A DNA stretch of 20,580 nucleotides from a virus. Taxonomy: Duplodnaviria > Heunggongvirae > Uroviricota > Caudoviricetes. The notes beneath the pieces are model-generated. The model did no database searches and was not told the origin of the DNA. It worked only from the letters and a program-made list of their open reading frames with translations. Position numbers and translations under genes: made by a program. Below are positions 691 to 6,893 of this stretch, one piece after another. Position 1 is the stretch's first letter, and the number at the start of each line of letters is the position of its first letter. The stretch lies in IMG/VR virus record IMGVR_UViG_2737471827_000003, positions 1 to 20,580 of that record; one strand, written 5' to 3'.

Positions 691-1056
691 ATGACTGAAC
701 GCATAGAATTTGTTTTGCCTTACCCGCCGACGGTGAATACTTACTGGCGACGTCGCGGCAGCACATATTTTGTATCAAAAGCCGGTGAGCGTTATCGCCG
801 AGATGTGGCGCTTATTGTTCGCCATCAGCAACTGAAATTAAACCTCTCCGGAAGGCTGGCGATAAAGATTATTGCAGAGCCACCGGATAAGCGCCGTCGT
901 GACCTGGACAATATCCTGAAAGCACCACTGGATGCGCTGACGCATGCCGGACTACTCATAGACGACGAGCAGTTTGATGAAATCAATATTGTGCGCGGTC
1001 AGCTCGTTCCTGGTGGGCGGCTGGGGATAAAAATCACAGAACTGGAGTGCGCATGA
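691..1056 (+). CDS. rusA: Crossover junction endodeoxyribonuclease RusA (Holliday junction resolvase)
   Basis: 121 aa translation MTERIEFVLPYPPTVNTYWRRRG...DLDNILKAPLDALTHAGLLIDDEQF matches the RusA family; position just upstream of Q is typical. Confidence 0.85.
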   Translation: MTERIEFVLPYPPTVNTYWRRRGSTYFVSKAGERYRRDVALIVRHQQLKLNLSGRLAIKIIAEPPDKRRRDLDNILKAPLDALTHAGLLIDDEQFDEINIVRGQLVPGGRLGIKITELECA

Positions 1057-1742
1057 ATAACCAGTATTTACAGTTTGTGCGTGAGCAGCTCATTATCGCC
1101 ACCGCTGATTTGAGTGGGGCAACAAAAGGTCAGCTTGAAGCCTGGCAGGAGAATGCCATGTTCGATACAGGGCGTTACAGGCGAAAAAAAATCCGGTACC
1201 GCGATGAAGTGACTGGAAAAATGATAACGCGGGATAATCCACCAATCCCGGGAAAACAATCACTGGCGAATGGCTCATCAATTGCCCTGGTCAGCCCGGT
1301 TGAGTTTTCGACATCATCATGGCGGCGGGCTTTGCTGTCTCTTGAAGAGCATCATAAAGCCTGGTTGTTGTGGTGTTACGGCGAGAGTATTTGTTGGGAA
1401 TATCAGATCGCGATAACACAGTGGGCGTGGAATGAATTTAATACTCAATCCGGTACCAGAAAAATTGCAGGGAAAACGCAGGAACGCCTGAAAAAATTAA
1501 TCTGGCTGGCGGCGCAGGCAGTAAAAGCAGAACTTTTTGGTGGGGAAGGTTATGAATACCAGGAGCTGGCATTACTGGCGGGAGTGACAACTAAAAACTG
1601 GTCCAAAACATTTACTCGTCACTGGGTTGCAATGAAACACATTTTTCAACGACTGGATAGTGAGGCTTTATTGTTTGTAATGAGAACACGTTCAAAACAA
1701 AAGGCGGCATTTTCAAAGCAAAGTGTTGCAAAAGTAGATTGA
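1053..1742 (+). CDS. Late-gene antiterminator, Q-like
   Basis: ORF directly downstream of rusA (overlapping its stop) and directly upstream of a sigma70-like promoter plus intrinsic terminator, the canonical Q/PR'/tR' arrangement. ATG at 1053 is preceded by GGAG at 1044-1047; the ORF track's start at 1047 is a GTG. Call is by synteny more than by recognised sequence. Confidence 0.6.
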   Translation: MNNQYLQFVREQLIIATADLSGATKGQLEAWQENAMFDTGRYRRKKIRYRDEVTGKMITRDNPPIPGKQSLANGSSIALVSPVEFSTSSWRRALLSLEEHHKAWLLWCYGESICWEYQIAITQWAWNEFNTQSGTRKIAGKTQERLKKLIWLAAQAVKAELFGGEGYEYQELALLAGVTTKNWSKTFTRHWVAMKHIFQRLDSEALLFVMRTRSKQKAAFSKQSVAKVD

Positions 1743-1754
1743 AAGGCATATATT
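1726..1754 (+). promoter_or_regulatory. Candidate late promoter PR' (-35 TTGCAA 1726-1731, 17-nt spacer, -10 TATATT 1749-1754), overlapping the Q stop codon
   Basis: Near-consensus sigma70 hexamers with 17-bp spacing, placed at the Q 3' end and about 50-80 nt upstream of an intrinsic terminator, as at lambda PR'/qut. Confidence 0.55.
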
Positions 1755-1804
1755 TCATGCAAATCTGATATTTTGCCGATTTTGTACGTGATGGCAAAAG
1801 CAAA

Positions 1805-1832
1805 CAAAACCCGCCCACAAGCGGGTTTTTTT
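1805..1832 (+). terminator. Rho-independent terminator, tR'-like
   Basis: Stem CCCGC (1810-1814), loop CCACAA, stem GCGGG (1821-1825), then T7 (1826-1832), preceded by an A-rich tract. Confidence 0.75.
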
Positions 1833-1868
1833 GTGCCACTTATCTCGGATAGACATGGTGAATGCGCT

Positions 1869-1876: not shown

Positions 1877-1906
1877 GTAAGCGACTCGTCAGAACCGTAT
1901 TGATAT

Positions 1907-3478
1907 TTACTGAGAGCTCAGATCAACTTTCCAGGGCAACAGATCGCGTACCCGGTTTGCCGGCCAGTCCTGGATATGTTCAATGACGTAACGCAGCCAC
2001 TTTTCTGGCTCCACATTGTTCAGACGGCATGTGCCGATCAGCGAGTACAACACCGCCGCATGTTCACCACCGCTGTCGGAACCCGCGAACATCCAGTTTT
2101 TCCGGCCTACGGCCACTCCCCGTAAGGCGTTCTCTGCGATGTTGTTGTCGATTTCCACCCAGCCATTACTGCAGTACACGTTCAGTGCATCCCACTGTTT
2201 CAGCAGGTATGCGAACGCTTTTGCCGTATCTGAGTGACGCGACAGTGTTTTCATCTGTTGCTGTATCCAGTCATACAGTGACTGCATCAGTGGCGCGGCT
2301 CTGGCTTTTCTTGCCGCCAGACGCTGTTCTGCTGAACAGCCCCGGACCTCTGCCTCGATGGCATACAGTTCACCGATACGCTGCAGGGCTTCCGTGGTGA
2401 TGTAGGTGGACGCTCTTGCATGCACATCGTGGATTTTTCTCCGGGCATGAGCCATACACGCGGCTTCCGTTATTCTGCCGGATTCGTATAACGCCCGGTA
2501 ACCACCGTAAGCATCGGCCTGAAGCACACCGCTGTAACCGGCCAGGTGATTTTGTGGATGGATACCTTTCCGGTCCGGACTGTACGCGAACCAGACCGCC
2601 GGGGGCATCTGTGAACCGGCGTTACGGTCATCACGGACGTAGACCCACAGCCGGGCTGTCCGGGTTTTACCGCTGCCCGGCTCCTGGACCGGGACGGGGA
2701 TATCATCAGCATGGACTTTACCGGGCATCAGCACATACTGGCGCAGGACGTCATACAGCGGCTCCAGCAGTTCAGCAACAGCACCTGTCCAGCGCCCCAG
2801 TGTGGCACGGCTCAGCTCCACTCCCTGACGACGGTATATTTCTGACTGGCGGTATAACGGCAGATGGTCTGCATATTTCCCGGTGACAACATGGGCCAGA
2901 AGCCCCGCTCCGGCATAACTGCGTGCAATGGGTTTTGAAGGTACTGGTGCCTGCACGATATGGTCGCACCGGCAACAGGCCTGTTTCGGACGTTGTGTTT
3001 CGATAACCTTAAAGGCGCTGCTGATAAGCTCCAGTTGCTCTGACACATCACATCCCAGAGAACTGAGTTCACCACCACAGGCAGGACAGCATTCCTCTTC
3101 CGGCCGGATAACCCGGGTTTCACGGGGAAGTGAGGCCGGTAACGGTTTACGGGCTGAAGACTGGCGCAGGGCGGATGGCAGTACCGGGTCATATTGCTCA
3201 CCCAGCGTTTCCGCCATTTCTTCCTGAAGTGCGCTGATTCGCTCCTGTGCTTCCTGTATCTGCCGTTCGGTTTTTGCACGAAGTTTTTCTGAGCTTTTAC
3301 CGAACTGCATACGTTGCAGTTTCGCAACCAGCGCCTTCAGCCGGTTGATTTCGGAAGCATAAGCCGCCACCCGCTGTGAGAGCAGGCGGTTGTATTCAGC
3401 CATCTGGCGGATGGTGTCCTGTTGCGTCTGCAACAGTGCCCGCAGGCGGGCGTTCTCATGAGCAAGTGAGGTGTCCAT
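1907..3478 (-). CDS. IS66-family transposase (third and largest ORF of the element)
   Basis: 523 aa with an N-terminal coiled-coil/leucine-zipper region, a CxxC...CxxC cluster, and a central/C-terminal region typical of IS66 TnpC-type transposases. Confidence 0.85.
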
Positions 3479-3497
3479 ATCCTCACTTTACAACGGG

Positions 3498-3845
3498 TTA
3501 TATGCGGATTCCAGCGCGTTCCGTTCGTTTCGGGTGCTTCCAGTTGATACCTTCAAGAAGCATGGATAACTGAGCCGGAGTAAGGTGCACCTTGCCGTCA
3601 CGGGTGACTGGCCAGACGAAGCGGCCCCGCTCCAGGCGTTTGGTGAAGAGGCACAGTCCGTCACTGTCAGCCCACAACACTTTTATCTGGTCACCCCGGC
3701 GTCCGCGGAAGATGAACAGGTGTCCGGAGAACGGGTCATCCTTCAGGACGTTCTGAACTTTTGATGCCAGGCCGTTAAAGCCATTTCGCATATCGGTGAT
3801 ACCTGCAACCAGCCAGATACGCGAACCTGCAGGGAGAGATATCAT
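3498..3845 (-). CDS. IS66-family accessory protein, Orf2/TnpB-like
   Basis: 115 aa, MISLPAGSRIWLVAGITDMRNGFNGLA...; conserved IS66 Orf2 signature; start overlaps the upstream ORF (ATGA). Confidence 0.85.
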   Translation of the reverse strand: MISLPAGSRIWLVAGITDMRNGFNGLASKVQNVLKDDPFSGHLFIFRGRRGDQIKVLWADSDGLCLFTKRLERGRFVWPVTRDGKVHLTPAQLSMLLEGINWKHPKRTERAGIRI

Positions 3846-4522
3846 CAGTGGCTGCTCCCTTTTATTTCGCGGATAAGTGTCTGTAATAACGCCGGCGTCA
3901 GTTTACCTTTAAGCCTGAGAGTTCCGGCCGGCAGAACCAGCTCACAACACAGACTGTCGGACGGTGTATTTATCTGCTCTGGTTCCTGTGCGGGGGCCGG
4001 GATTTTATTATCCGGCTCCGGCGTTAACGTCACGGGAAGCAGTGCCGGCATATTTTTTCCGGAAGGCAGCAGGCCACCTTTCCGGTATTGATGGCGCCAG
4101 TTGAAGAGCAGGTTATCGTTGATTCCGTTTTCCCGGGCGATCTGCGCCACACAGGCTCCGGGCTGCAGTGACTGCTCCACTAAGGCGATTTTAAACTCAT
4201 AAGGGAAGTTGGGCCGCCGGGGACGTTTTTTTACCACGGGGGCTTCGGATATAACGGTGCTTTCAGGACGTACGACTGGTACCGTGGAAAATTGTCCGTA
4301 AAGGCAGGCATCAAGTTCCTGCTCCGACATGCCTGCGGGCAAAGGCCACGAAAGGCCAGCTCTCCGAAAGCGCACGAACATACTACAAACTGTTGATTTT
4401 GGTACACCCAGGCGACGCCCGGCCACAACCCGGGGTAAATGTTCTTCAAAGTGAAGACGTAAAGCTTCAGTGATCCAGGTCCGGTGTTTCATACGATAGT
4501 GTCCATTAAAAATGATGGACAT
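3845..4522 (-). CDS. IS66-family accessory protein, Orf1/TnpA-like, with an N-terminal HTH-like extension (true start uncertain)
   Basis: C-terminal part ...RRPNFPYEFKIALVEQSLQPGACVAQIARENGINDNLLFNWRHQYRKG resembles IS66 Orf1. The 225-aa longest ORF is longer than typical, so an internal start is possible. Confidence 0.65.
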   Translation of the reverse strand: MSIIFNGHYRMKHRTWITEALRLHFEEHLPRVVAGRRLGVPKSTVCSMFVRFRRAGLSWPLPAGMSEQELDACLYGQFSTVPVVRPESTVISEAPVVKKRPRRPNFPYEFKIALVEQSLQPGACVAQIARENGINDNLLFNWRHQYRKGGLLPSGKNMPALLPVTLTPEPDNKIPAPAQEPEQINTPSDSLCCELVLPAGTLRLKGKLTPALLQTLIREIKGSSH

Positions 4523-4575
4523 TATTTTTGTAGAGCCGGAGGAAACAGACCAGACGGTTTAAATGAGCCGGTTAC

Positions 4576-4583
4576 GGTGGAGG
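4576..4583. repeat. Target-site duplication (right copy) GGTGGAGG
   Basis: Identical to 1869-1876. Confidence 0.8.
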
Positions 4584-4659
4584 AGCTAAGGGTGATTTTT
4601 AACCAGGTGATTTTTGAATGCTTGCAACATTGATTTCGTAACGTTATTATCCTGCGCCC

Positions 4660-4735
4660 GGCCCTTTAGCTCAGAGGTGAGAGCGAGCGACTCATAATCG
4701 CCAGGTCGCTGGTTCAAATCCAGCAAGGGCCACCA
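4660..4735 (+). tRNA. tRNA-Ile2-like (anticodon CAU, presumably lysidine-modified; formally Met by anticodon)
   Basis: Cloverleaf folded by hand: acceptor GGCCCTT/AAGGGCC, anticodon loop CTCATAA, T-loop TTCAAAT, encoded CCA. Overall strongly resembles E. coli ileX-type tRNA (recalled from memory). Confidence 0.75.
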
Positions 4736-4736
4736 A

Positions 4737-4813
4737 CCGCCACTAGCTCATCAGGAAAGAGCGTCAACCCTTTAAGTTGAGTGTGCGAGGTTCGAGTCCC
4801 CGGTGGCGGTCCA
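4737..4813 (+). tRNA. tRNA, isotype uncertain (anticodon loop CCUUUAA; nominal anticodon UUU, but C at position 33 is atypical)
   Basis: Acceptor CCGCCAC/GTGGCGG, D-stem GCTC/GAGC, anticodon stem TCAAC/GTTGA, T-loop TTCGAGT, encoded CCA; 77 nt. One A:C mismatch in the T-stem. Confidence 0.6.
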
Positions 4814-4815
4814 GT

Positions 4816-4891
<76 letters not shown>

Positions 4892-4894
4892 TAT

Positions 4895-4969
<75 letters not shown>

Positions 4970-5260: not shown

Positions 5261-5476
5261 ATGAAATCCATGGACAAAATTTCAACGGGCATTGCCTATG
5301 GCACCTCCGCAGGCAGTGCTGGCTACTGGTTTTTACAGTGGCTTGATCAGGTCAGTCCGTCACAGTGGGCTGCGATTGGTGTGCTGGGGAGTCTGGTTCT
5401 GGGCTTCCTGACTTATCTGACAAATCTGTACTTCAAAATCAGAGAAGACAAGCGTAAGGCTGCACGGGGAGAGTAA
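5261..5476 (+). CDS. S: Class II holin (pinholin), phage 21 S-like, with dual-start motif M1-K-S-M4
   Basis: 71 aa [30 protein letters not shown]...[35 protein letters not shown], close to the phage 21 S holin as recalled; two transmembrane segments; preceded by GGAGG. Confidence 0.9.
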
Positions 5477-5480
5477 TTCA

Positions 5481-5832
5481 ATGACTCAAAACTATGAACT
5501 GATTGTGAAAGGGATCCGCAATTTTGAGAATAAAGTTACGGTAACTTTAGCGTTACGGGACAAAAAAACGCTTTGACGGTGAAATTTTTGACCTGGACAT
5601 CTCGCTGGACCGTGTTGAAGGTGCCGCGCTGGAGTTTTATGAGGCAGCAGCCAGAAGGAGCATCAGACAGGTCTTCCTGGATGTTGCTGCCGGGTTATGT
5701 GAAGGGGATGAGCAGTCGCCGGAAAAGCGCCCCGTAATTTTAGATGCGCAGAATGTGTGGATAACCTACAAAGGAAAGCTACCAGGAAGAATTACTGGTT
5801 CTCTGAAGACTCCTCCGGAATCACAACCTTAA
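5481..5832 (+). pseudogene. Hypothetical lysis-cassette ORF interrupted by a frameshift in an A7 tract (5562-5568); the two halves together would give about 116 aa
   Basis: Frame 0: ATG 5481 ... MTQNYELIVKGIRNFENKVTVTLALRDKKTL, stop TGA at 5574-5576. The frame offset by one continues without a usable start codon: DGEIFDLDISLDRVEGAALEFYEAAARRSIRQVFLDVAAGLCEGDEQSPEKRPVILDAQNVWITYKGKLPGRITGSLKTPPESQP, stop TAA at 5830-5832. Both pieces fall below the ORF-track threshold. Confidence 0.6.
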
Positions 5833-5895
5833 GTCACTGACCGGAACAGATAAACCTGTCCGTGGGCAGAAACCGATAAATCCTGATAAATATCC

Positions 5896-6429
5896 ATGAA
5901 CGCAAAAATCAGATACGGCCTGTCGGCTGCCGTTCTGGCACTGATTGCCGTCGGTGCGCTCGCGCCTGATATTCTCGACCAGTTTCTGGATGAAAAAGAA
6001 GGTAACCACACAACGGCATACCGCGATGGGTCCGGCATCTGGACCATCTGTCGGGGTGCCACGATGGTGGATGGAAAACCCGTTTTTCCCGGTATGAAAC
6101 TGTCGAAGGAAAAATGCGACCAGGTCAACGCCATTGAGCGTGATAAGGCGCTGGCATGGGTGGAGCGCAATATTAAAGTACCACTGACCGAACCACAAAA
6201 AGCGGGTATCGCGTCATTTTGTCCCTATAACATTGGCCCCGGTAAGTGTTTTCCGTCGACGTTTTATAAGCGGCTGAATGCCGGTGATCGTAAGGGCGCA
6301 TGCGAGGCGATTCGCTGGTGGATAAAAGATGGTGGGCGCGATTGCCGCATACGTTCAAATAACTGCTATGGACAGGTTATTCGTCGTGACCAGGAAAGCG
6401 CATTAGCCTGTTGGGGGATAGATCAGTGA
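5896..6429 (+). CDS. R: Endolysin, T4-lysozyme-type (GH24) with N-terminal SAR (signal-anchor-release) domain
   Basis: 177 aa; weakly hydrophobic Ala/Gly-rich N-terminus ([17 protein letters not shown]) followed by a catalytic E...D...T spacing ([22 protein letters not shown]); paired with a pinholin. Confidence 0.9.
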
Positions 6430-6893
6430 GCAGAGTCGCCGCGATTATTTATGCTCTGGTTATCTGCATCATCGTCTGCCTGTCGTGGGCGGTCAATCAT
6501 TACCGTGATAACGCCATCGCCTACAAAGAACAGCGTGATAAAAAAGTCAGTGAGCTGAAGCTGGCGATCGCCACCATCGCTGACATGCAGCAGCGTCAGC
6601 GTGATGTTGCTGCGCTCGATGCAAAGTACTCGAGAGAATTAGCCAATGCGCAAGCTGAAAATGAAACTCTGCGCGCTGATGTTGCCGCTGGCCGTAAGCG
6701 CCTGCGGGTCAATGCCAGTTGCTCCGCAGCCGTGCGTGAAGCCACCGGACCCACCAGCGTGGATAATGCAACCATCCCCCGACTGGCAGACACCGCTGAA
6801 CGGGATTATTTCACCCTCAGAGACCGATTGATGACGATGCAGATGCAACTGGAAGGGGCGCAGGAATATATCCGCACTCAGTGCATTAAGTAG
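6426..6893 (+). CDS. Rz: Spanin inner-membrane subunit Rz (i-spanin)
   Basis: Translation from GTG 6426, (M)[37 protein letters not shown]..., is near-identical in pattern to lambda Rz; overlaps the endolysin stop. Confidence 0.85.
6646..6831 (+). CDS. Rz1: Spanin outer-membrane lipoprotein Rz1 (o-spanin), nested inside Rz in another frame
   Basis: 61 aa [61 protein letters not shown]; lipobox-like LAVSAC and proline-rich, lambda Rz1-like. Confidence 0.85.

Follow-up and report, generated by a model that had tools for sequence, protein, structure and literature searches.

Positions 1726 to 1832 of the window, by which we mean the whole 20,580-nucleotide stretch of DNA analysed here, very probably form the late-gene control region of a phage 82-type lambdoid prophage, made up of the late promoter PR', a Q-loading site with a σ70-dependent pause, and the terminator tR'. 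The original prediction of a PR'-qut-tR' module overlapping the end of a Q-like gene was thus a correct reading of a textbook element, and the module is of a known kind, that of phage 82. That reading had missed the pause element, a hairpin inside the leader RNA, an insertion of the IS66 family and the relation of the leader to the small RNA IsrJ. The result settles Q82 as the antiterminator family of the prophage late operon and gives the positions, to the single base, of the start site, the pause element, the site of pausing and the terminator, for direct use in an in vitro template; the understanding of antitermination is unchanged by it.

In the mechanism that we propose, σ70 RNA polymerase would initiate at A1761 from the promoter TTGCAA-17-TATATT, σ region 2 would re-bind the TG-extended −10-like sequence at +6 to +14, and the polymerase would scrunch and pause at +25/+26. 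Without Q, the polymerase would escape and stop at the hairpin and U7 terminator, giving a leader RNA of 72–74 nt. Once the Q gene upstream is expressed, its product would bind the DNA between approximately −31 and the pause element and load onto the paused complex, yielding a terminator-resistant polymerase. Transcription could then pass tR' and reach the genes for tRNAs, lysis and morphogenesis, here only after crossing a 2.7-kb IS66-family element. We infer initiation at 1761 and the pause at +25/+26 from phage 82 biochemistry, and Q binding and antitermination are likewise put forward as expected behavior of the module.

Promoter, pause element and predicted terminated leader

The −35 hexamer of PR', TTGCAA (1726–1731, plus strand), lies within the last codons of Q and is followed after a 17-nt spacer by the −10 hexamer TATATT (1749–1754, plus strand). 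The Q stop codon TGA (1740–1742, plus strand) falls inside this spacer, at −21 to −19, as expected from the predicted overlap of promoter and gene end. The promoter had been called near-consensus; its hexamers and spacing are where they had been placed, but the description is overstated, as 9 of 12 positions match the σ70 consensus (4/6 and 5/6) at optimal spacing. A consensus scan of the first 6 kb finds seven such 9-of-12 matches versus 5.1 expected, so that the hexamers alone are not above chance. The composite of promoter and pause element, TTGCAA-N17-TATATT-N11-TGATAT, is above chance: it occurs once in the window versus 0.01 expected, even allowing two mismatches.

Two candidate sites on the minus strand overlap this region. 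A promoter-like site at 1797..1770 was judged to be a chance match. The sequence TTGCAACACTTTGC, on the minus strand at 1718–1731, has the TTGC-N6-TTGC form of a lambda CII site and shares bases with the PR' −35 hexamer; in phage 434 its equivalent carries the annotation paQ, an antisense promoter. We do not claim it as a CII-dependent antisense promoter, since one occurrence in the window compares with 1.5 expected and is not significant alone.

Setting +1 at A1761 (plus strand) places GCC at +15 to +17 and a U at +25, and the window sequence then reads AAATC-TG-A-TATTTT-GCC-GATTTTG-T. By sequence match, 1766–1777 (plus strand) corresponds to a σ70-dependent pause element, consisting of TG (+6, +7), the −10-like TATTTT (+9 to +14) and the GC-rich discriminator GCC (+15 to +17), and the phage 82 pR' pause positions predict pausing at +25/+26 (U and A, 1785–1786, plus strand). 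At 82 pR', the extended −10, −10-like pause element is nearer to consensus than that of lambda, the GCC discriminator occupies +15 to +17, and the major pauses are at +25/+26 with a U at +25 (PMC5001585). The sequence features at +6 to +17 and at +25 in the window agree with this description and with that in PMC3326312. A start near 1761, as had been predicted, is consistent with 82 pR' in its GCC, its TG-extended −10-like element and its U at +25, and it is also consistent with the 5' end of IsrJ in the Salmonella prophage Gifsy-1, which lies within ~2 nt of the homologous position.

The terminator tR' (1806–1832, plus strand) comprises a stem at 1806–1829 with a GC core at 1810–1825 and a T-run at 1826–1832. 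Its core pairs CCCGC with GCGGG (1810–1814 and 1821–1825), A:U pairs lengthen the stem to 1806–1829, and seven T follow. It folds with a ΔG of −13 kcal/mol and a z-score of −4.6, and none of 200 shuffled sequences folds as well, which bears out the strong intrinsic terminator of the original prediction; the expected distance of about 50 nt from the start also holds, with the hairpin beginning +46 to +50 from A1761. The consensus scan gave tR' on the minus strand only, because greedy stem extension had consumed the T-run on the plus strand. Terminated transcripts would correspond to an IsrJ-related leader RNA of 72–74 nt (1761–1833, plus strand), with a predicted 3' end at approximately +72 to +74, close to the roughly 70 nt first proposed, and the 73-nt leader has a minimum free energy of −22 kcal/mol (z −3.1). 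The same proposal called this leader constitutive, which may be too simple, since the amount of IsrJ in Salmonella differs between growth conditions and with HilA (PMC2330248).

Inside the leader, a hairpin of the form UUUUGCC ... GGCAAAA is predicted at 1771–1799 (plus strand), with a 5' arm that overlaps the pause element (ΔG −7.9 kcal/mol, z −1.5). A hairpin is predicted at the same place in most of 154 unique long-type leaders, with arm sequences that vary by lineage (GCCA/UGGC, GUCG/CGAC and GCUGCC/GGCGGC); the curated isrJ structure contains the terminator only, without an internal hairpin. An arm-swap test among eight lineage types gives p ~0.02, which is suggestive of selection on the hairpin. 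Single-sequence z-scores range from −0.6 to −2.2, and in a MAFFT alignment the lineage types fall in different registers, so that no single consensus structure can be counted. Given these weak z-scores, the differing registers and a swap test at p ~0.02, we do not claim that the internal hairpin is selected.

The Q82 antiterminator and conservation of its late promoter

The Q gene (1053–1742, plus strand) encodes a Q82-family late-gene antiterminator of 229 residues, and its ATG shares bases with the stop codon of rusA (ATGA). The upstream context, a DUF968 protein and RusA by Pfam, is that of a lambdoid nin region. The profile search proposed with the original prediction identifies the 1053–1742 product as a Q82 antiterminator: PF06323, the Q82 family (PMC9388147), is its sole Pfam family at E ≤ 0.01 (E 2.3e-91, 305.9 bits) and aligns nearly end to end, over profile positions 1–217 of 220. 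The product shares 76.9% identity with phage 82 Q and 73.8% with the Q of phage 434, and it belongs to neither the lambda-type (PF03589) nor the 21-type (PF06530) Q family. A PDB sequence search with it returned no relative, and Q82 is the one Q family without a solved structure, its mechanism being open (PMC9388147). The assignment points to a prophage whose late operon would be run by a Q82-family antiterminator.

Where would this protein bind? The 82 Q-binding element (QBE) and pause element lie together within −31 to +30 (PMC4914094), and by this bracket we expect the QBE of the window somewhere within 1730–1765 (plus strand). The window differs from the phage 82-type sequence at −2, −1 and five spacer positions, and its Q is 23% different from 82 Q, chiefly in the C-terminal third, so that cognate specificity of Q and QBE is an assumption here. 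Among 193 unique protein/DNA combinations, the more the last 70 residues of Q diverge, the more −18 to −1 tends to diverge as well (Spearman 0.45); for +1 to +90 the correlation is only 0.16–0.18. This co-variation would fit a Q C-terminal domain and an adjacent QBE that behave as one module, but it is suggestive only, since physical linkage confounds it.

Q alleles are also mosaic, with near-identical N-terminal two-thirds joined to one of two unrelated-looking C-terminal thirds (residues ~155–229), of the types KAEL...YEYQ...KNWS and RGWV...YQRQ...DNWSHNY. Each C-terminal type comes with a distinct −18 to −1 promoter segment and the same +1 to +40.

Conservation was followed in 344 Q82-family loci from species-representative genomes and viral contigs, anchored on the promoter. 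The geometry of promoter and pause element is kept in 341 of the 344, and in the three exceptions another gene is fused after Q. The alignment was anchored on the first four bases of the −35 hexamer and on G+7 to A+10. Among the 143 unique −45 to +45 sequences, A41 and A40 of the −35 hexamer (−31, −30) are nearly invariant, as are T+4 and the last four bases of the TTGCAAAA block, the first four being an anchor. A-11, T-8 and T-7 of the −10 hexamer are each present in 142 of these relatives; T+6, T+11, T+14 and C+17 are conserved in 135–143 of the 143 and the T at +25 in 131. Information content drops sharply past +18, and BLAST similarity with diverged phages ends at approximately +11 to +17. 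The Q stop codon occupies −21 to −19 in 311 of 319 anchored loci, and an intrinsic terminator follows at most 120 nt from +1 in 174 of 184 unique leaders, its stem mostly ending at +65 to +79, or at approximately +45 to +50 in a short class that includes phage 434.

A more distant clade, 30–35% identical in Q (phage LLS type), has TTGCAA-17-nATATT with GATA at offset 41, approximately 33 bp past the stop codon. Because this clade and Gifsy-1 keep TTGCAA outside Q, the −35 hexamer is not conserved merely as coding sequence. The promoter and pause-element geometry is retained in this LLS-type PF06323 clade (L351 at 1126–1210, and L353–L404). In the LLS-type spacer TGCAA is repeated (TTGCAAAATGCAAC), and this repeat may represent a tandem site for Q binding.

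Closer to the window, the segment of Q plus PR' has a match in 1,413 of 5,426 complete E. coli genomes. Almost all of these matches reach at least 80% identity, and in many of the genomes the segment is 100% identical. A close relative of the module is therefore carried by about a quarter of complete E. coli genomes.

IsrJ, the IS66-family insertion and competing readings

IsrJ of Gifsy-1 is a 74-nt RNA that was detected experimentally in Salmonella (PMC2330248). The Rfam family isrJ (RF01393) matches Gifsy-1 at 2533–2607 of our locus L350 with 100 bits, where TTGCAA-17-TATATT predicts +1 at 2536; placed on this match, the published 74-nt RNA begins within ~2 nt of the homologous +1. The isrJ covariance model also matches 12 of 20 diverse loci, with 38–94 bits and an onset 16–19 nt past the Q stop codon, in Citrobacter, Raoultella, Leclercia, Enterobacter, Atlantibacter, Klebsiella and Phytobacter. 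As Gifsy-1 and these 12 loci place isrJ on the PR' leader, Rfam isrJ is the terminated leader of Q82-type late promoters. This identity is new here: the phrase "late promoter" is not used in PMC4825925, and IsrJ is not among the short PR' RNAs listed in the StxS paper (phages 21, phi80, 82 and P22). Expression of IsrJ, and of its Rfam matches across Enterobacteriaceae, should accordingly be read as PR' activity. Matches of isrJ on the PR' leader lie at ~2206–2285 in L011, L012, L013, L015, L018, L019, L020, L023, L029, L031 and L035.

The window leader has the layout of the isrJ type, running from the +1 of a Q82-type late promoter to the first terminator. At Rfam gathering thresholds no family is found in 1726–1832; compared directly with RF01393, the leader covers the full model (1–75) at 1758–1830 with 24.5 bits (E 0.005–0.011), below the 37-bit threshold. 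The likeness is confined to the first 15 nt and the terminator. We therefore regard the window leader as related to IsrJ but not as belonging to the family.

The module is parted from its late genes by an IS66-family element (tnpA, tnpB, tnpC; 1878–4577, minus strand), assigned by Pfam and delimited against an IS-free relative (L002). The element is 2.7 kb long, lies 45 bp past tR' and is flanked by an 8-bp target duplication, GGTGGAGG, at 1870–1877 and 4578–4585; in IS-free relatives the tRNA genes follow tR' after approximately 100–200 bp. This separation of the PR' module from the tRNA and lysis genes is described here for the first time. Its junction is present in none of the 5,426 complete E. 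coli genomes, which suggests that the insertion is probably recent. The sampled left end of the element is ~95% identical to ISCro1-like copies.

Past the element, on the plus strand, a promoter-like site TTGCAA-17-TATTAT (4622–4650) precedes four tRNA genes, Met-CAT, Lys-TTT, Thr-TGT and Gly-TCC, which form the first part of the late unit (4622–4969 including the site, by consensus and tRNA scan context). The 4622–4650 site has the unusual −35 hexamer of PR' and is found in IS-free relatives as well. Lysis genes follow at 5261–6893 (plus strand), encoding a P21-type holin, a lysozyme and an Rz-like protein, and then the terminase, head and tail genes. These late genes lie downstream of the PR' module on the same strand, and it is presumably the lysis and morphogenesis genes that readthrough under Q would reach.

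Could the module serve mainly, or also, as a small-RNA gene of the IsrJ class, its promoter and terminator being kept for an RNA role besides late-gene control? In such a case the 73-nt RNA would act in trans in lysogens, like StxS and IsrJ. The placement of isrJ on the Gifsy-1 leader and on 12 of 20 loci speaks for this, as do the full-length match of the window leader to the model and the organization of that leader, in which a single-stranded 5' end precedes an internal hairpin and a U-tailed terminator. PR'-terminated RNAs can also regulate, StxS being an example, and deletion of isrJ lowers Salmonella invasion and effector translocation (PMC2330248). However, the window copy scores under the Rfam threshold, its likeness to IsrJ consists of a 5' stretch of 15 nt, where the pause element constrains the DNA, plus a generic terminator, and its internal hairpin is unlike the IsrJ type. 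IsrJ has no known target, the data on Hfq binding and on an in-trans effect are from Salmonella only (PMC2330248), and an RNA function would in any event be compatible with a role in antitermination. We therefore hold the small-RNA reading to be unlikely. A broader version, which we offer tentatively and would not expect to hold, is that the Q82-type terminated PR' leaders are one widespread RNA family (Rfam isrJ), that the RNA from 1761–1833 acts in trans in lysogens with its first 15 nt doubly constrained, as DNA pause element and as RNA seed, and that the internal hairpin is kept for RNA stability or protein binding.

The IS66-family element raises another question, namely whether PR' is now an orphaned remnant, uncoupled from the late genes, which would then use the 4622–4650 site or stay silent. 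A 2.7-kb element with a target duplication just 45 bp past tR', a promoter-like sequence directly beyond it ahead of the tRNA genes, and a junction absent from the complete E. coli genomes and so probably recent would all suit this reading. Yet polymerase modified by Q passes intrinsic and Rho-dependent terminators over many kilobases, so that an insert of this size need not block readthrough; the 4622 site is no replacement promoter, because IS-free relatives have it too; and no damage is apparent in Q, in the module or in the lysis and structural open reading frames beyond. We consider uncoupling distinctly improbable. That the promoter match is a mere coincidence, with the hairpin and T-run serving only to terminate the early (nin-Q) transcript, is hardly credible: 9-of-12 matches do occur at chance frequency in the window sequence and the terminator does lie directly past the last early gene, but the composite of promoter and pause element exceeds its chance expectation about 100-fold, the arrangement recurs in nearly all of the 344 loci, even in some where it lies apart from Q, the functional elements match phage 82 pR' base for base, and a homologous RNA was detected in Salmonella (PMC2330248). 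Late-gene control by a phage 82-type module remains the reading that we prefer.

Relation to the late promoters of phages 82, 434, Gifsy-1 and lambda

The GenBank record of phage 82 ends at the Q stop codon. Phage 82 is therefore represented here by an E. coli prophage with a Q gene that matches 82 Q at every nucleotide (100% identity). A literature text search with TGATATTTTGCC, made to find the phage 82 pR' sequence, returned matches in unrelated papers only. Downstream of its Q, the proxy prophage reads TTGCAA-17-TATATT-tcatat-AAATCTGATATTTTGCC-aatgttg-T, with a T at +25. It shares with the window both hexamers, the 17-bp spacer, the TGaTATTTTGCC pause element and the U at +25, as well as a PF06323 Q with 77% amino acid identity, a Q stop codon within the spacer, and a hairpin followed by an intrinsic terminator. 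The two differ at 5 of 17 spacer positions, at −2/−1 (GC in the window versus AT) and from +18 to +23; the hairpin arms are UUUUGCC/GGCAAAA in the window versus UUGCCA/UGGCAG in the 82 type, and tR' of the window is unrelated in sequence to the phage 82-type terminator. Judged from this alignment, the functional elements of the 1726–1832 module appear to be, base for base, those of phage 82 pR'.

Phage 434 (OL657226) likewise has a Q82-like Q (74% identity), with a TTGCAA overlapping the 3' end of its gene. A −10-like element extended by TG (TGgTATGTT) stands at the same offset as in the window. In contrast to the window, its leader is of the short type, without an internal hairpin, and its terminator stem ends at approximately +49.

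In Gifsy-1, AntQ (STM2617) is a Q82-family Q with 66% identity, and the promoter TTGCAA-17-TATATT is followed by the same AAATCTGATAT start, whereas the module lies ~860 bp downstream of Q and the hairpin of IsrJ belongs to the GUCG/CGAC type. The interval between the Gifsy-1 Q gene and the PR' module (L350, 1662–2500) holds a P1 immI-like cassette, which contains Rfam c4-a1b1 targets, isrK, a C4 antisense RNA and the antirepressor-like STM2616.

Finally, the PR'-qut-tR' region of lambda, with its 6S RNA, and the PR' of Stx phages, with StxS, share the logic of the module: a promoter after Q, a σ70-dependent promoter-proximal pause, a QBE, a terminator, and a short terminated RNA in lysogens.
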